Shown here: piece after piece, positions 28,665 to 61,651 of the stretch | Layout of the letters: each line of letters opens with the position of its first letter | Numbering within the stretch: the first letter of the stretch is position 1 | Source: Actinomycetota bacterium | GTDB taxonomy: Bacteria; Actinomycetota; Thermoleophilia; Solirubrobacterales; 70-9 | NCBI GenBank assembly: GCA_018268675.1 | Contig: JAFDWB010000069.1 | Coordinates: forward strand, 19,838-83,837 | Length of the DNA stretch: 64,000 bases | Direction: 5' to 3' | Position numbers and translations under genes: made by a program | The notes under the pieces: model-generated | What the model saw: only the letters and a program-made list of their open reading frames with translations | Databases searched by the model: none | Told to the model about the DNA's origin: nothing

Positions 28665-28701
28665 AGGGGCACCGGCTGGCGCCTCGGAGCTGGCGCCGGG
28701 C

Positions 28702-28745
28702 CGGTTGGTGAGTTGACCCCGCTGGGGTGTGGTCAACTCACCAAC
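28702..28745. repeat. Perfect 16-bp-stem hairpin (GGTTGGTGAGTTGACC / GGTCAACTCACCAACC, 12-nt loop)
   Basis: Read directly from the sequence. Lies 38 nt after the PPTase stop. No T-tract follows. Confidence 0.6.
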
Positions 28746-28844
28746 CGTCCAGGGTTTTCAGGGATGGGCACGGTGTTCGAGGCCTTTCGCATGGGAGCGC
28801 GTGACGAAGTGCGCGGCCTCGGTGCGTCTTCCGTCCGCGGTCTG

Positions 28845-28893
28845 GGTTGATGGGCCGAAAACCGCTGATATGGAGCGCTTTTCGGCCCATCAA
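28845..28893. repeat. Palindromic element family A, copy 1 (intergenic)
   Basis: GTTGATGGGCCGAAAA-CCGCTGATATGGAGCGC-TTTTCGGCCCATCAAC. 45 of 49 nt are identical to the copy at 57490-57538. Confidence 0.8.
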
Positions 28894-28977
28894 CGTCGGG
28901 GGGGGCGCGGAAGGCGCAGACGCTTGGTGATTTGAGGGCGCCAGGGCCCACACAACTCAGCAAGCGACGGGGACCCC

Positions 28978-41525: not shown

Positions 41526-41553
41526 CGCAGCCTCCTACGCGCCGTCTCGACGT

Positions 41554-41606
41554 CGGTAGGAGCCATCAGCGGTCGCGCCGCGGTTATGGAGCGAGCCCCA
41601 TCGCTC
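41554..41606 (-). promoter_or_regulatory. Fluoride riboswitch (crcB RNA motif) aptamer
   Basis: The minus strand reads GAGCGAUGGGGCUCGCUCCAUAACCGCGGCGCGACCGCUGAUGGCUCCUACCG. This aligns position for position with the known aptamer pattern GGGCGAUGAGGCCCGCCCAAACUGCCC...GGGCUGAUGGCCUCUAC. It sits directly upstream of two crcB genes. Confidence 0.85.
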
Positions 41607-41672
41607 GGGTCAGGAGGCGAACCTTACCCAAGGTCGAAGGGTTACCGAGCAAACCACCTCGAGGAGGCAGAG

Positions 41673-45303: not shown

Positions 45304-45376
45304 TGGCGAGGGGCGGACTCGAACCGCCGACACCGCGATTTTCAGTCGCGTGCTCTACCAGCTGAGCTACCTCGCC
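45304..45376 (-). tRNA. tRNA-Phe: tRNA-Phe (anticodon GAA)
   Basis: The minus strand GGCGAGGTAGCTCAGCTGGTAGAGCACGCGACTGAAAATCGCGGTGTCGGCGGTTCGAGTCCGCCCCTCGCCA folds as a 73-nt cloverleaf: 7-bp acceptor stem, GAA in a CTGAAAA loop, and a TTCGAGT T-loop. CCA is not encoded. Confidence 0.95.
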
Positions 45377-56346: not shown

Positions 56347-58071
56347 TTGCATGCGGGCGTGCGAATCGCCCGCGCCGCCGCCCTCTGCACCCTCGTCGTC
56401 GCGATCGGCGTCGTGCTCGTCTCGGGCGGCTCCGACAGTGGCCCGCGCACGCCCCCGGCGCTCCCGGGCCTGCCGCCGCCTTTTCTCGGCACCGCGGTGA
56501 GCGGGGACGGGGGGCTGACCGCAGCGGTCGACGCCTACGGCAACGTGGTCGACCTGCGGGCGCCGGGACCGGCGGGCGCGCCGCTGATCCACAACCCCTC
56601 CGCCCGCCAGGCCGCCGGGACGGTACCCGCCGACACGGGGATCGTCCCCTATGTGCGGCTCGGTGGCGGCGAGGCGCGGGCGATGTGGCGGGCCGACTCG
56701 GTGTCTCAGCGCTACCTGCCGGGGACGAACGTGGTGCGGACGGTCGCCCGGTTCGGCCGCGCGCGCGTGGTGATGACGGTGGCCGCGGCGGGCGGCTCCC
56801 TCGCGATGGTGATCCGCGCCGCGGCGGCGACAGGGATCGCGACCTCCTCCGTCACCCTCGACCTGGCCCCGACGATCCGCTGCGCTCGCGAAAGACGGGC
56901 CGGGCAGGTCGACCTCCTCTGTGGCCCGAGGAACGGCGGGCCGCCGACGCTTCATCGCCATCTGCGTCCGAGCGGCGGGGCCGTGGCGCGGGCGTGCCGG
57001 CAGGTGGTTCGGACCGCGACCGGGGAGGCACGAGGCTGGCTCGGGCGATCGACGGCGCTCGGGTCCGGCGCACCGCGGTGGGCGCGGGCGCTCTACCGGC
57101 GCTCGCTGCTGACGGTCCACGCGCTGACCTCGCGCCGCACCGGCGCGGTCGCGGCCGGAGCGCGCGACGGCTGGGCCTACGTCTGGCCCCGCGACGCCGC
57201 CACCGCCGCGCTCGCCCTCGAGGCGTCCGGCCACGGCGCCGAAGCCCGCCATGTCGCGCGCTTCCTCACCGGCCTCGACCTTGCCGCCGCGGCGCGCTTC
57301 ACCGAAACCGGCGCCCCGGTCCCGGGCCGTCCTGCCCAAGGCGACGCGGCCGGCTGGGTCGCCATCGCCGGCCGCGCCACCGGAGTCCCGCCTCCCGACC
57401 GTCCCTTCGCCTGGCGCAACCGCGCCGACTACCAGGAGTCCACCCCCGGCACCTACCTCGGCAACGCCCTCGCCGCCACAGGCTCCCACGTTGACGGGCC
57501 GAAAACCGCTGACATAGAGCACTTTTCGGCCCATCAACATGGAGGTGCGGGCGAGATCGCGCGCGAATTCGGTACCTCGCGGGGCCTCGTGCGGAGCGCC
57601 GGCGACCCGGGCTCCGGCCTCGACTCCGCCGCCGCCTGGGCAGTGCGCCCGTTCAGAGTCCCGCCCCTCTACCCCGCCGCCGCGAAGACCCTCCAAGCCC
57701 TCGTCAGCCAAGGCACCAGATTCGGGATCACCCCCGGCGAAGGCTGGACCGGCGGCCACGACCCCTGGTCCGCCCCGACCGCCTGGAGCGCCTGGGCCCT
57801 GGCGGGTCTCTCGGCCGCGCCGGAGAGGGCCGGCGGGAGGGGGCCTCAACCGAACCTCCCCGCAGTTCGTGAGGGCGAGGCCCCCTCCCGTCGGCCCCCT
57901 GGCCCGCGCCAAGAAGCCATTGCCCTCCTCCAAGACCTCCGCCGCGCCGCGACCCCCGCGGGCGACCTCCCCGAGCGCGTCGGCGTCCACACCGGGATCC
58001 CGACCTCGACCACGCCGCTGCTCTGGTCGAGCGCCTTCACCGTCCTCGCCCTGCGTGAACTCTGGCCCTGA
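56347..58071 (+). CDS. Glycoside hydrolase family 15-like (glucoamylase/trehalase-type) protein with N-terminal anchor, carrying two palindromic-element inserts in frame
   Basis: GWAYVWPRDAATAALALEASGH (the GH15 W-x-RD region), DPWSAPTAWSAWALAGL and TPLLWSSAFTVLALRELW. Start is either TTG 56347 or GTG 56359. Confidence 0.7.
   Translation: MHAGVRIARAAALCTLVVAIGVVLVSGGSDSGPRTPPALPGLPPPFLGTAVSGDGGLTAAVDAYGNVVDLRAPGPAGAPLIHNPSARQAAGTVPADTGIVPYVRLGGGEARAMWRADSVSQRYLPGTNVVRTVARFGRARVVMTVAAAGGSLAMVIRAAAATGIATSSVTLDLAPTIRCARERRAGQVDLLCGPRNGGPPTLHRHLRPSGGAVARACRQVVRTATGEARGWLGRSTALGSGAPRWARALYRRSLLTVHALTSRRTGAVAAGARDGWAYVWPRDAATAALALEASGHGAEARHVARFLTGLDLAAAARFTETGAPVPGRPAQGDAAGWVAIAGRATGVPPPDRPFAWRNRADYQESTPGTYLGNALAATGSHVDGPKTADIEHFSAHQHGGAGEIAREFGTSRGLVRSAGDPGSGLDSAAAWAVRPFRVPPLYPAAAKTLQALVSQGTRFGITPGEGWTGGHDPWSAPTAWSAWALAGLSAAPERAGGRGPQPNLPAVREGEAPSRRPPGPRQEAIALLQDLRRAATPAGDLPERVGVHTGIPTSTTPLLWSSAFTVLALRELWP
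57490..57538. repeat. Palindromic element family A, copy 2 (inside the GH15-like ORF)
   Basis: GTTGACGGGCCGAAAA-CCGCTGACATAGAGCAC-TTTTCGGCCCATCAAC, translated in frame as VDGPKTADIEHFSAHQ. Confidence 0.8.
57835..57889. repeat. Palindromic element family B, copy 1 (inside the GH15-like ORF)
   Basis: GGGAGGGGGCCTC-AACCGAACCTCCCCGCAGTTCGTGAGGGC-GAGGCCCCCTCCC, with a perfect 13-bp stem. Confidence 0.8.
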
Positions 58072-58115: not shown

Positions 58116-58640
58116 ATGCGCGTCAGGCCGGCCCGCGGTGACGACGCGGCCGAGCTCGGCCGCGCGCTGAAGGTCGTCGTCGAGGAAGACTGGCTGGCGC
58201 TCGAGCCACCGATGACCGCGGCCGAGCTGGCGGCGGGGCTCCGCACGCGCCTCGACGAGGGACAGAAGCTCCTCGCCCTCGAAGACGACGACGGCGCGTC
58301 CGCGGGGGAGGGCCCGCTCGTCGGTCTGATCAACCTCCGCCCCACCCGCATCGACGGGGTCTGGTCGATCGGCCTCTGGATCCTCCCCGGCCATCGGGGC
58401 AAGGGCGCCGGACGACTGTTGGTGGACGCCGCGATCGAGGCCCGCCCGCCCGGCGTCCACAAGATCGAGCTCGAGGTCTGGCCCGAGAACGAGGCCGCGA
58501 TCCGCCTCTACGAACGCGCCGGCTTCCAGCGCGAGGGCCTGCGCCGCGACCATTACCGCCGCCGCGACGGCCGCCTCCGCTCCTCGGTGATCATGGCCCG
58601 CCTTTTCCCCGACGGCACGCCGCCGCCCCCCGACAAGTGA
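58116..58640 (+). CDS. GNAT family N-acetyltransferase
   Basis: WILPGHRGKGAGRLLVDAAI (acetyl-CoA Q/RxxGxG/A motif) and ENEAAIRLYERAGFQREG. Confidence 0.8.
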   Translation: MRVRPARGDDAAELGRALKVVVEEDWLALEPPMTAAELAAGLRTRLDEGQKLLALEDDDGASAGEGPLVGLINLRPTRIDGVWSIGLWILPGHRGKGAGRLLVDAAIEARPPGVHKIELEVWPENEAAIRLYERAGFQREGLRRDHYRRRDGRLRSSVIMARLFPDGTPPPPDK

Positions 58641-58721: not shown

Positions 58722-59285
58722 TCAAAGCTCGGCGAGCGCCAGCGTCACGGCCTCCTCGGCCGTCTCGGCCTGGATGACCCCCGGCGCGCCCTCCATACGG
58801 TCGCTCCCGACCAGACCCCAGCTCCGAAGCGCGACGACGGTCCGCCCCAGCGACCGCGCGTGCCCGATCTCCGACAGCGTCCCCCACTCGCCGCCGATCG
58901 CGATCACGACCTCTCCCGACCCGACCACCGCCAGGTTCCGCGCCTGCCCGATCCCCGTCGCCACCACGTGCGTGCAATCCGAATTCGCCTCCCCCAGATC
59001 ACTCCCCGGCAGCACCCCGACAACTTCGCCACCCGCCGCAGCCGCCCCCCGAGCCACAGCCGCCATCACGCCCCCGCGCCCCCCACAAACCACCGTCACG
59101 CCAACTTCCCCCAACCGCTGCCCGACCTCCTCCGCAAGCCCCCAAATCTCGGAGCCCTCGACAGCCCCACCCGCCCCGATGACGGCGACCTGCCGCCCAC
59201 GCCGATAGGCCCGGCGTGAGGGACCCCCGAACGAACCTCCCCGCAGTTCGTGAGAGAGGGGGTCCCTCACGCCGGGCCCCAGCAC
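58722..59285 (-). CDS. TIGR00725-family (SLOG/LOG-like Rossmann) protein
   Basis: RQVAVIGAGG..., VVCGGRGGVMAAVARGA and VIAIGGEWGTLSEIGHA. The N-terminal ~25 aa are encoded by repeat element B copy 2. An alternative start exists at GTG 59270. Confidence 0.65.
   Translation of the reverse strand: MLGPGVRDPLSHELRGGSFGGPSRRAYRRGRQVAVIGAGGAVEGSEIWGLAEEVGQRLGEVGVTVVCGGRGGVMAAVARGAAAAGGEVVGVLPGSDLGEANSDCTHVVATGIGQARNLAVVGSGEVVIAIGGEWGTLSEIGHARSLGRTVVALRSWGLVGSDRMEGAPGVIQAETAEEAVTLALAEL
59216..59270. repeat. Palindromic element family B, copy 2
   Basis: GTGAGGGACCCCC-GAACGAACCTCCCCGCAGTTCGTGAGAGA-GGGGGTCCCTCAC. It has the same 22-nt loop core as copy 1, but the stem differs at four positions, and each difference is compensated on the other arm. 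Confidence 0.8.
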
Positions 59286-59295
59286 GCCGGTCCCC

Positions 59296-61590
59296 TCACG
59301 CCGCTCTCCGTACGGCCCGAGCCCTCTGCATCCGCCCCATCAACTCCAGCGCCCCCGCCTTATGCAGCGGTTCGTTGAGGTTCCCGCACTTCGGACTCTG
59401 CACACAGCTCGGACACCCGCTCTCGCACGGACACTCGGCGATCAACCGCTCGGCGTCCCCCACCAACCGCTCGAACTCCTGGAACCCCCGCCTGGTGATC
59501 CCCACCCCGCCCGGGTGCCCGTCGTAGATGAAGATCGTCGCGCGGCCGGTCTGGAAGTGGACGTTGGTGGAGAGCCCGCCGATGTCCCAGCGGTCGCACA
59601 TCGCGATCAGCGGCAGCACCGCGATCTGCGAGTGCTCGGTCGCGTGCAGCGCCCCCAGCAGCACCTCGGGCGGCAGCGCGCCGAAGTTCCCCTCCGGCAG
59701 CACATACCAGAGCGCCTGGGTGACGAAGCTCTGCTCGGGCAGCTCCAGGGCGACGATGTCGATCGGCTCGTTGTCGGCGATCGAGACCCGCTGGAAGGCG
59801 ATCACCTGCTCGGTCACCGACACCTCGCCGAAGCTCAGCTGCACCCCCGCCACCTCGCGCTGCTCGTGGATGCGCTCGATGTAGATGTCGGTCTCCTTCT
59901 TCGGCCGCGTGTACCAGTCGCCGTCGAAGCGCGAGACCAGCGCCCGCCGCTCCCGCACGTCGAGCTGCTCCACCTCATACGAGCGCCCCAGGTGCAGGTA
60001 GACCGCCCCCGGGTGGATCGTCGTGAACGCGCGCTCCGCCTCGACCAGCCCGAGCATCTCTCCCGACTCCCGCTCGATCACCGCCACCGAATCCGCCGAG
60101 GCCGAGCGCAGCGGGATTCGCGAGGCGACGAACTCGCCCCGCCGCGGCGCCAGCCCGCCGCCCGCCCGCCGCAGCTCCCCCGCCTCCAGCAGCCGCTCCA
60201 CCCGCTCCCGCCACCCGGGCCCGAAGAACTCCTCGTCGGCCTCGCCCAGCGGCAGCTCGTAGGCCGCCGCGACCAGGTGGCGCATCGCGATCTGCTCGTT
60301 GCCGTGGTCGAGGATCGCCGCCTCCACCGGCCGCCCGAGGAACTCCTCCGGGTGGCGGCAGAAGAACTGGTCGAGGGCGTCCTGCCCGGCCACGTAGACC
60401 GCCAGCCCGCGTCGGCGCCGCCCTGCCCGCCCCCACATCTGCCGCAGCGACGCCACCGTCCCCGGGAAGGTGACGCAGATCGCCGCGTCGAGCTCCCCGA
60501 CGTCGATCCCCAGCTCGAGCGCGTCCGTCGCCACCACCGCCAGCAGCTCCCCGCGCGCCAGCCGGTCCTCGATCTCGCGCCGCTGCTGGGGCGTGTAGCC
60601 GCCGCGGTAGGGGGCGATCAGGCGCGCCAGCTCCGGCCGCCCCCGCCGCTCCAGGTTTTCTCGCGCGAAGCGCTGGATCAGCTCGATCCCGCGCCGCGAT
60701 TTGAGGAAGCAGATCGTCCGCACCCCGTGGGTGACGAGCTCCGCCAGCAGGTCCGCCGCCTCGGCCAGCGCCGAGCGCCGCGTCCCGGTCGCCTTGTCGA
60801 TCAGCGGCGGGTTCCACATCGCGACCTCACGCCCCGCCCGCGGCGCGCCGTCGTCGTCGATCAGGCAGAACGAGGTGCCGACCAGCCGCTCGGCCAGCTC
60901 CGCCGGGTTGGCGATCGTCGCCGAGGCGAGCAGGAAGCGGGGTTCGGACCCGTAGGCGCGGGCGACCCGCCGCAGCCGCCGCAGCACGTTGGCGACGTGG
61001 GACCCGAAGACGCCGCGATAGGTGTGGGCCTCGTCGACCACCACCCACTCGAGGTTGGCGAAGAAGTCGCCCCACTTCTTGTGGCTGGGGAGGATCCCGA
61101 CGTGCAGCATGTCGGGGTTGGTGAGGATCAGGTTCGATTTGCGGCGGATCGCCGGGCGCTCCTCACGCGGCGTGTCGCCATCGTAGATCGCCTGCCGCAA
61201 CCCCGGCGGCCGCAGCTGGGCGAGCTTGCGCGCCTGGTCCTGGGCGAGCGCCTTGGTCGGGTAGAGGTAGAGCGCCCGCGCCTTCGGCCGGCGCGCGATC
61301 CCGTCGAGCACCGGCAGGTTGAAGGCGAGGCTCTTGCCCGAGGCGGTGCCGCTGGTGACGATCAGGTCGGCGCGCGGGGCCGTCTCCCAGGCGCGCAGCT
61401 GGTGCGAGTAGAGCGCCTCTATCCCGGCCCGCCGCAGCGCCGCGACCAGCTCCGGCGCGAGCCCGTCGGGCAGCGGCACCGGCTTCGCGCCGCGGTCGGG
61501 CTCCGCGGTCTCGGCGACGATCCGCCCGTCCCGCCGCGCCGGCGAGATCGCCACCCCCCACTGCGTGTCAATGATCGACGAGCGCGCCAT
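59296..61590 (-). CDS. DEAH-box helicase with C-terminal DUF1998 zinc domain (MrfA/YprA family)
   Basis: Motif I TSGTASGKSLAF, motif II VVVDEAHTYRG, and a C-terminal CPCESGCPSCVQSPKCGN four-Cys cluster. ATG 61590 (GGGGGAGGG upstream) is preferred to the ORF-track GTG 61620, which lies inside repeat C copy 2. Confidence 0.85.
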   Translation of the reverse strand: MARSSIIDTQWGVAISPARRDGRIVAETAEPDRGAKPVPLPDGLAPELVAALRRAGIEALYSHQLRAWETAPRADLIVTSGTASGKSLAFNLPVLDGIARRPKARALYLYPTKALAQDQARKLAQLRPPGLRQAIYDGDTPREERPAIRRKSNLILTNPDMLHVGILPSHKKWGDFFANLEWVVVDEAHTYRGVFGSHVANVLRRLRRVARAYGSEPRFLLASATIANPAELAERLVGTSFCLIDDDGAPRAGREVAMWNPPLIDKATGTRRSALAEAADLLAELVTHGVRTICFLKSRRGIELIQRFARENLERRGRPELARLIAPYRGGYTPQQRREIEDRLARGELLAVVATDALELGIDVGELDAAICVTFPGTVASLRQMWGRAGRRRRGLAVYVAGQDALDQFFCRHPEEFLGRPVEAAILDHGNEQIAMRHLVAAAYELPLGEADEEFFGPGWRERVERLLEAGELRRAGGGLAPRRGEFVASRIPLRSASADSVAVIERESGEMLGLVEAERAFTTIHPGAVYLHLGRSYEVEQLDVRERRALVSRFDGDWYTRPKKETDIYIERIHEQREVAGVQLSFGEVSVTEQVIAFQRVSIADNEPIDIVALELPEQSFVTQALWYVLPEGNFGALPPEVLLGALHATEHSQIAVLPLIAMCDRWDIGGLSTNVHFQTGRATIFIYDGHPGGVGITRRGFQEFERLVGDAERLIAECPCESGCPSCVQSPKCGNLNEPLHKAGALELMGRMQRARAVRRAA

Positions 61591-61608
61591 CAACCCCGCC
61601 CTCCCCCG

Positions 61609-61651
61609 GCGCGTTCGCACTTTGCGGCGCTATCCGCGGGTTTCTGCGAAC
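61609..61651 (-). repeat. Hairpin element family C, copy 2 (between the DHPS-family gene and the helicase gene)
   Basis: The minus strand reads GTTCGCAGAAACCCGCGGATAGCGCCGCAAAGTGCGAACGCGC. The first 18 and last 15 nt are identical to copy 1. Confidence 0.75.

Follow-up and report, generated by a model that had tools for sequence, protein, structure and literature searches.

In the window analysed here, 64,000 nt of contig JAFDWB010000069.1 from an Actinomycetota bacterium of the Solirubrobacterales (assembly GCA_018268675.1), a GH15-like gene is most probably functional and carries translated palindromes in two of its loops, one of them (element A) belonging to a dispersed repeat family and the other (element B) being a hairpin copy. 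The features concerned are as follows.

Positions 56347..58071, plus strand: GH15-like host gene, 574 aa, TTG start.
Positions 57490..57538, no strand assigned: element A, a single unit belonging to a family of 49-nt palindromic repeats (6+10+17+10+6 nt).
Positions 57824..57900, plus strand: element B1, the copy of element B within the gene, with 24-nt arms, a 29-nt loop and the core CGAACCTCCCCGCAGTTCGTGAG; residues 493-518.

An initial annotation had placed A exactly, as a 49-nt palindrome within the 574-aa open reading frame (ORF); it had located B correctly in the same ORF but at 57835-57889, short of its full extent.

The host protein starts with a membrane or signal segment and comprises a beta-sandwich domain and a domain of the (alpha/alpha)6 type. 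It is identical to the NCBI hypothetical protein P0001 from an 89-kb contig of a metagenome-assembled genome (MAG) named 'Actinobacteria bacterium', for which the start is annotated at a GTG four codons further in. The Pfam family PF00723 matched with 24.2 bits against a cut-off of 22, the match being limited to residues 246-307; the score against NCBIfam TIGR01577 was far under its cut-off, and a profile search of PDB sequences gave no match. A Pfam score barely over the cut-off and the lack of a PDB match, together with the tendency of high-GC DNA to yield long spurious ORFs, many of which overlap this locus, would suit an annotation artefact or a decaying pseudogene, open by chance, in which case the in-frame property would be meaningless. 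Homologues of the gene number 2360, and almost all of them come from MAGs assigned to Solirubrobacterales or 'Actinobacteria'. Against an artefact or pseudogene stand the hundreds of full-length GH15-like orthologues from independent assemblies, which have ~60 invariant residues in common; E364, E465 and E543 of the host protein are invariant across the orthologue alignment. The codon-position GC pattern argues likewise: GC1/2/3 is 0.75/0.66/0.88 as a whole-gene mean, and GC3 stays at 0.76-0.96 in one frame upstream of, between and downstream of the elements. As orthologues also align with the host protein on either side of each element, the single open frame across both, as originally described, holds up. 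Proteins and DNA were compared for 80 orthologous GH15 loci taken from metagenomes, and in six pairwise comparisons among element-bearing orthologues the dN/dS of the gene body was 0.26-0.36, versus 0.4-1.2 for the element codons.

The predicted fold points the same way. AlphaFold2 run on an alignment of 33 close orthologues gave a model that was too poor (pLDDT 48.7), and a run on 133 sequences gave one of moderate confidence (pTM 0.74, pLDDT 66). The best Foldseek match of the latter was the GH15 glucodextranase 1UG9 (E 1.8e-8, TM 0.46); next came a dextran dextrinase (9JU0) and, after it, GH94 cellobiose phosphorylases. At this moderate confidence the predicted fold has the GH15 architecture of an N-terminal beta-sandwich and an (alpha/alpha)6 barrel. 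Element A is moreover found in frame in PurQ, LeuRS and MurE (see below), which does not suit an artefact either. As judged by these comparisons, the host is under purifying selection and appears to be a functional GH15-like gene, as the initial interpretation requires, and the artefact or pseudogene reading, which has next to no probability left, can be regarded as excluded. Separately, other length-variable sites in the GH15 orthologues were noted at alignment columns 165-200, 240-260, 290-350 and 495-505, where some orthologues (P0021, P0072, P0006, P0035, P0005) carry long inserts rich in Gly, Arg, Pro and Ala.

Element A is a near-perfect palindrome with arms GTTGACGGGCCGAAAA and TTTTCGGCCCATCAAC flanking the 17-nt tip, and its pairing can be extended to 57486-57542 (25-nt arms, 84% complementary). 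Codon 382 begins at 57490, and the element is read as residues 382-397, VDGPKTADIEHFSAHQ. The predicted RNA fold has -33.9 kcal/mol on the sense strand (z -5.1 versus shuffled controls) and -43.8 kcal/mol on the antisense strand (z -8.0). Over 57480-57548 the sense fold, with A-C mismatches, is weaker than the antisense fold, with G-U pairs; this difference could be due to chance or could hint at which strand matters. A further copy is present in the window.

Positions 28846..28894, no strand assigned: second element A, within ~400 nt of intergenic sequence.

The RNA fold of this copy has -38.6 kcal/mol (z -7.5), and the full patterns of A and B did not occur once in 100 shuffles of the window. 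Some 90 nt upstream of this copy, where an ORF ends, there is a strong hairpin at 28696-28753, with 23-nt arms that are 91% complementary (CCGGGCCGGTTGGTGAGTTGACC / GGTCAACTCACCAACCGTCCAGG). It is related to long hairpins of the GTGAGTTCGCA type present in L005, L011 and L015, and these hairpins are probably further palindrome families.

Across 119 copies, the consensus of family A is GTTGAY + GGGCCGAAAA + 17 nt + TTTTCGGCCC + RTCAAC. The conserved block is exactly 49 nt, information content falling abruptly beyond it, and the 17-nt tip is hypervariable, mostly self-complementary about a CTATAT/ATATAG centre and found in both orientations. A scan for GGGCCGAAAA-N(8-28)-TTTTCGGCCC in one genome per species, with counts that are lower bounds, matched at least 114 stretches, at least 101 of which come from ~30 Solirubrobacterales-type MAGs with several copies per genome. 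Among the matches listed, 13 stretches from other phyla have other loop lengths and resemble ordinary terminators. Family A copies are mostly intergenic, some of them immediately ahead of a start codon or following a stop codon, and 89 of the 105 testable copies were not called in-frame genic. At least 16 of the 105 (at least 15%) were called in-frame genic by a conservative GC3-based coding test, including calls at L082, L119, L153 and L189 that may be chance open frames or gene junctions. The genic fraction is nevertheless a lower bound, because the strict test misses the GH15 copy, which has high GC2.

The hosts of in-frame copies identified with NCBIfam are the aminodeoxychorismate synthase PabB, LeuRS, the error-prone polymerase DnaE2, biotin carboxylase, MurE and an MptB-like mannosyltransferase; PurQ, named by source records and Pfam domains, is a further host. 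Among PurQ orthologues that are ~90% identical, those lacking the insert (..DLLDGERTLSIP..) are 209-210 aa long, and those that carry it (..DLLAVDGPKTQAGVEFSAHQQVLSIP..) are 222-229 aa long. Predicted peptides across the junctions include ..GSHVDGPKTADIEHFSAHQHGG.. and, in PurQ, ..VDGPKTQAGVEFSAHQ... All three frames are used by the genic copies, giving VDGPK..FSAHQ, LMGRK..FRPIN and RWAEN..FGPST. In the third of these the consensus GTTGATGG would produce a TGA stop, and the genic copies have GTCGATGG or GTTGGTGG. The removal of stop-creating bases from genic copies marks selection for survivors with an open frame, as the initial annotation had supposed. Two side observations concern the same hosts. 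In a PabB fusion (L088:1232-3511) the linker between the domains contains one A-derived segment, ..ENQADSQVFGPSTTG.., and the chorismate-binding domain a second, ..DVDGPKNHDIGGFSAHQ.., and PurQ of L101 has PVDGPS ahead of the insert, as if part of the left arm had been duplicated; either case suggests that hits were repeated or that duplications were partial.

Within the GH15 family, site A is empty in P0035, P0053, P0081, P0117, L004-6, L010, L017 and others. Among the orthologues compared, the VDGPK..FSAHQ peptide is always accompanied by the nucleotide palindrome, and none was seen that keeps either insert peptide (VDGPK..FSAHQ or RDPRTNLPAVRE) without a nucleotide palindrome; orthologues that lack the palindromes also lack the peptides, in accordance with the original proposal that the two come together. 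In distant GH15 clades, the same loop is filled by palindromes with other arms. One of these reads GACGTGTCTGAG...CATATATG...CTCAGACAC and encodes the peptide DVSEFSRHIWGESSDTP, and the other reads GCCGACGGGACGAAA...TCGTCCCGTCGGC and encodes DGTK..LYG.KSSRR; both families are also present in these genomes at places other than the GH15 gene. Across the orthologue family, site A thus holds no fewer than three palindrome families, all different and dispersed, and each found outside the gene too. A CTATATGG centre is common to the two families of the distant clades and is translated in different frames, and the similarity is therefore at the nucleotide and not at the protein level. Parsimony on a neighbour-joining (NJ) tree of 133 orthologues gave at least 14 gains or losses of elements and ~41 changes of family state at site A, in a crude reconstruction with states assigned by regular expressions. 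The tips at the same site have opposite orientations in L001 and L014. Site A therefore seems to have been hit, converted or flipped repeatedly and not filled once, and in place of a single lineage-specific insertion of A, elements have often been gained, lost and replaced there. At site A, weak 'AIRHLYGAK'-type hairpins (score 6-9) were set aside, being no better than chance matches in hairpin-free region B; they are decayed relics at most.

Element B1 has arms at 57824-57847 and 57877-57900 that are 92% complementary, and its predicted RNA fold has -68 kcal/mol (z -5.6). Its counterpart lies 1.3 kb downstream; the two have their loop core in common, but the stem of the counterpart is a different one and fully complementary.

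Positions 59208..59278, plus strand: element B2, between the stop of a helicase gene and a SLOG/LDcluster4-like gene.

Region B, bounded by DPWSAPTAWS and TTPLLWS, is 129 nt long in practically every distant orthologue and also in some that are close (L007, L009, L013); these alleles encode ..AWALAGLGDRxSAL.. and have no hairpin. Alleles bearing B are 189-246 nt long, that is, +60 to +117 nt, with +90 nt in the window. B is therefore a derived insertion, and for this element the lineage-specific insertion first proposed is upheld. Comparison of filled and empty alleles revealed no target-site duplication (TSD) for B, and ~12 nt of native sequence (codons D-R-x-S) are replaced. Parsimony on the same NJ tree of 133 orthologues requires at least 11 gains or losses of B1. 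B2 keeps its position in 13 other loci, including loci in which the GH15 gene is without B; B2 is therefore taken as ancestral and B1 as its derivative, and copying would have proceeded from B2 to B1. The only B-type hairpin found outside the GH15/helicase locus is L164:6926-7006 on the minus strand, on a contig of a pasture-soil Solirubrobacterales MAG that also bears two A copies.

Across 22 copies, the B loop core GAACCTCC..GC.GTTCGTGA is nearly invariant, and 17 of 21 outer stem pairs are changed on both sides with 97% of cells paired. These values were reached in none of 500 shuffles, and slid controls fall to 41-55% paired. The outer B stems are not the same from one orthologue to the next, yet their complementarity is perfect. 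Each genome has its own loop variant, common to B1 and B2 (A/A in the window; T/T in L002, L008 and L010; G/G in L011; CCACGC in L195, where B1 is inverted). In P0081, B1 has the reverse orientation. Stem types are swapped between the sites, the window B1 matching the B2 of L010 and the reverse. This concerted pattern suggests either that the two sites undergo gene conversion or recopying, or that they co-evolve with a loop-reading factor. The loop core, CGAAC-N9-GTTCG, was also considered as a LexA/SOS box, an idea dropped over the spacing, which is N4 in the actinobacterial box.

In the moderate-confidence AlphaFold2 model, insert A falls within a long low-confidence stretch between helices (355-423, pLDDT < 50), and insert B falls at 496-513 (pLDDT < 50), between helices 475-494 and 520-534. 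This placement agrees with loop insertions, and the loops may lie at the surface.

The genes around B2 are the following, with synteny of the first based on tblastn.

Positions 58116..58640, plus strand: GNAT-type acetyltransferase gene, between B1 and B2.
Positions 59296..61620, minus strand: DEAD/Helicase_C/MZB helicase gene, stop codon at 59296-59298.

In the window, the helicase stop codon is 18 nt beyond B2, within a partial repeat of the B2 right arm; in orthologous loci such as L002, the last helicase codons (VRRAA*) and the stop are within the outer B2 arm. The partial repeat of the right arm (59258-59302) comprises GGTCCCTCACGCCG at 59261-59274 and, holding the stop codon, GGTCCCCTCACGCCG at 59288-59302. 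For the SLOG-like gene, the minus-strand ORF is open through B2 from a GTG at 59285, and B2 might also be translated, as an N-terminal extension of the SLOG-like protein.

A third hairpin site is present in the GH15-like gene.

Positions 56894..56948, plus strand: site of hairpin C, the third intragenic hairpin, with complementarity decayed in the window.

In many orthologues, hairpin C has 22-24-nt arms, often perfect, within the codons for RRAxQLDLxC..GRxVPPV (L002:10536-10591, L005:10542-10597, L008:10536-10591 and ~20 other loci), and the arms covary between orthologues. Another clade has at this place a different hairpin with 18-nt arms, CGGACGCAGTTGTCCCCG gtatg CGGGGACAACTGCGTCCG. No copy of hairpin C was found outside the GH15 gene in 1.9 Mb. 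Rfam at the gathering threshold found in the window only the two features below, both unrelated to the palindromes, and no family that matches the elements; an E-value search around the elements gave only sub-threshold look-alikes of miRNA hairpins.

Positions 41550-41614, minus strand: fluoride riboswitch RF01734 (41.2 bits).
Positions 45304-45376, minus strand: tRNA-Phe(GAA) gene, found with Rfam.

According to the proposed explanation, family A, specific to the Solirubrobacterales, would be mobile, spreading or being copied by conversion to many genomic sites. Copies that come to lie in tolerant protein loops, in a stop-free frame and orientation, would persist and insert ~14-19 residues rich in Gly, Pro, Lys and Ser, and copies that break genes would be purged by selection. 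B2 at the helicase/SLOG junction would have been copied into the GH15 loop in one sub-lineage, B1 being afterwards lost, flipped or homogenised with B2. In both A and B, what is conserved appears to be the hairpin and not the peptide, with arms that change compensatorily and residues that evolve almost neutrally. The hairpins may affect expression; perfect RNA stems of 20-24 bp would be expected to act as RNase III substrates and as obstacles to ribosomes.

Several observations weigh against this explanation. No TSD was found for A in the 119 copies, and no direct repeat of 3-5 nt was enriched at any boundary offset tested; the only excess at the 49-nt boundary is a weak AT dinucleotide (23 of 119), for which a direct repeat and an extension of the palindrome are indistinguishable. 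Neither solo arms nor a longer parent element of A was found in the 1.9 Mb of fetched DNA, and no transposase-like ORF was found between six neighbouring pairs of A copies, inspected by eye only. Likewise no RAYT was seen by eye between neighbouring A copies, no hidden Markov model search of whole genomes with PF01797 having been made. Site A is filled in most orthologues down to 50% identity, which could mean that a hairpin is selected for at this position instead. Hairpin C is confined to the GH15 gene and encodes a conserved protein segment, and a pure selfish-insertion model fails to account for it. B is low-copy, as a fuzzy loop-core search of other Solirubrobacterales DNA, 844 kb in all, yielded only one copy more, and 'mobile element' may be the wrong word for it; it is no high-copy dispersed element but a low-copy hairpin, apparently copied from a conserved intergenic hairpin nearby. 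Finally, the structure model of the host is only moderately confident.

The initial annotation had also held that extra bases, for example a TSD, came with each insertion and preserved the frame. This was not borne out: the A unit is exactly 49 nt, and net length changes between filled and empty alleles are irregular multiples of three. A duplication of 2 nt would give 17 codons with the 49 nt, and P0035 does differ from the window by 17 aa; this hypothesis was rejected as unsupported, since the difference is 13-19 aa in PurQ and in other GH15 alleles and since no direct repeat is enriched besides the weak AT, which is the same on both strands.

Hairpin C keeps two rival explanations alive, namely a selected intragenic structure and the maintenance of palindromes by a mutational process such as template switching. 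Under the first, the hairpins would be selected cis-acting structures of the GH15 gene and its operon neighbours and not selfish insertions, acting at the level of RNA (stability, processing or translational pausing of a secreted enzyme) or of DNA, and their translation would be incidental. The hairpins borne by the same three sites in orthologues down to 50% identity would fit such a role, as would the restriction of hairpin C to the GH15 gene, the fixed position of B2 at the helicase/SLOG junction and the covarying B stem around a nearly invariant 29-nt loop; the co-variation of B1 and B2 loop variants within a genome, even where B1 is inverted, suggests a loop-reading factor. It is difficult to reconcile with identical 16-nt A arms at more than 100 unrelated loci, mostly intergenic, as well as in unrelated housekeeping genes. 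Many orthologues without A, B or C show no gene decay, at least 11-14 gains and losses are inferred on the orthologue tree, and Rfam contains no matching family, so this explanation is rather unlikely for the system as a whole. A further reading, in which B, and perhaps C, would be no selfish repeat but a structured cis element of a new kind, its invariant 29-nt loop presented on a freely covarying 21-24-bp stem and read in trans, is improbable. If it were true, the co-variation of B1 and B2 loops, even in inverted copies, would reflect co-evolution with a protein or RNA that acts in trans, Solirubrobacterales would put such elements within coding sequence and thereby couple a secreted glycosidase, in its expression, to the neighbouring helicase/SLOG operon, and family A would be mobilised in parallel by an undescribed machinery that leaves neither TSD nor transposase signature and repeatedly targets the same protein loops.

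Under the second, palindromes would arise and be kept perfect by template switching or fold-back synthesis at quasi-palindromes, combined with gene conversion. The 'compensatory' changes would then not be evidence of selection, and C and the outer B stems would have been made in situ. The absence of a TSD, transposase or parent element (119 copies; 1.9 Mb; ORFs examined by eye) is compatible with this, and the outer B stems, different among orthologues yet perfectly complementary, are what such a process would leave. It would also suit hairpin C, which is found only in the GH15 gene and whose left arm is ordinary conserved coding sequence, and the concerted evolution of B1 and B2, with stem types swapped between sites across genomes. 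In-situ generation, however, cannot account for one and the same 49-nt unit, its arms identical, recurring at over 100 sites that are unrelated; the process could explain the maintenance of family A but not its origin, and as an explanation of the whole it is possible but doubtful. A dispersed family A together with a locally copied hairpin B thus remains the preferred explanation.

Palindromic elements of Rickettsia were reportedly described by Ogata et al. in 2000 and 2002, work that PMC10969869 and PMC3733652 summarise. These Rickettsia palindromic elements (RPEs) are ~100-150 bp long and belong to an AT-rich obligate intracellular alphaproteobacterium. RPEs have been given as ~150 bp (PMC10969869), and they are dispersed palindromes of which many are in frame in housekeeping genes (PMC10969869, PMC3733652). 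Element A resembles them in being a dispersed palindrome with a sizeable in-frame fraction in unrelated, functional housekeeping genes, to which it adds a conserved peptide; it too inserts apparently in tolerated loops, and a transposase is known for neither. The initial choice of RPEs as the closest analogy is thus well founded. In dispersal, A, at no fewer than 101 Solirubrobacterales-type loci, is like an RPE, whereas B, with one extra copy in 844 kb, is not. Element A differs from RPEs in its length of 49 bp, in its free-living, 70%-GC soil actinomycetotal host, in the hypervariable hairpin tip found in both orientations and in the filling of the same protein loop by several families; it is size and taxon that set it apart, and no sequence relationship is known.

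Repetitive extragenic palindromic (REP) sequences are likewise short stem-loop repeats, mostly extragenic near gene ends, some of which overlap stop codons, with a minority inside ORFs that include DNA replication and repair genes (PMC3733652). Intragenic REPs have been described in Opitutus, Thioalkalivibrio and others (PMC3733652), and the REP survey by Di Nocera et al. 2013 (PMC3733652) makes no mention of Actinobacteria. In contrast to REPs, A has no GTAG or CGTC tag (the 119-copy consensus being GTTGAT..ATCAAC with weak flanking AT), its stem is 16-20 bp and not 5-13 bp, and its copies are single units and not head-to-head dimers. MITEs, or miniature inverted-repeat transposable elements, such as Correia, ERIC and Nezha (PMC10969869) share terminal inverted repeats, the lack of their own coding capacity and occasional in-frame fusions with host ORFs. 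Unlike them, A has no TSD in 119 copies and no parent insertion sequence with the same ends in 1.9 Mb, and at 49 bp it is at or below the lower MITE size limit. The coding palindromes of nematomorph mitochondria (PMC6649704), long perfect inverted repeats with both arms translated, are the closest parallel to hairpin C and the B arms; they belong to an animal organelle, reach 284 bp and are not known to be dispersed or to recur at intergenic sites.

A search of the literature on palindromic repeats in Solirubrobacterales found nothing. Palindromic repeats in frame within functional genes have long been regarded as peculiar to Rickettsia, alongside intragenic REPs scattered among a few Gram-negatives. 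The same phenomenon is now seen in free-living, high-GC soil Actinomycetota, where essential enzymes have been entered (PurQ, LeuRS, MurE, PabB, DnaE2). The hundreds of filled and empty MAG orthologues provide a second, independent and much better-sampled system for studying how proteins tolerate or recruit loops encoded by selfish DNA. For annotation, the motifs VDGPK..FSAHQ, LMGRK..FRPIN and WAEN..FGPST in Solirubrobacterales proteomes should be recognised as repeat-derived. The system also presents a mechanistic puzzle, since hairpins of -34 to -68 kcal/mol persist in a predicted translated mRNA and their arms co-evolve with no transposition signature visible.

The novelty first claimed applies to the family and the phylum but not to the phenomenon, given the intragenic REP-like repeats of non-rickettsial bacteria (PMC3733652). 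What is new is family A itself, the host phylum and the breadth of essential genes entered, as well as the repeated filling of one protein loop by different families and the separate character of B, a hairpin that is low in copy number, combines a conserved loop with a stem that covaries, and was apparently copied from the operon junction next to the gene. By comparison with the known systems, element A works like an RPE, yet by its size, tag, TSD and phylum it is not a member of the RPE or REP families.

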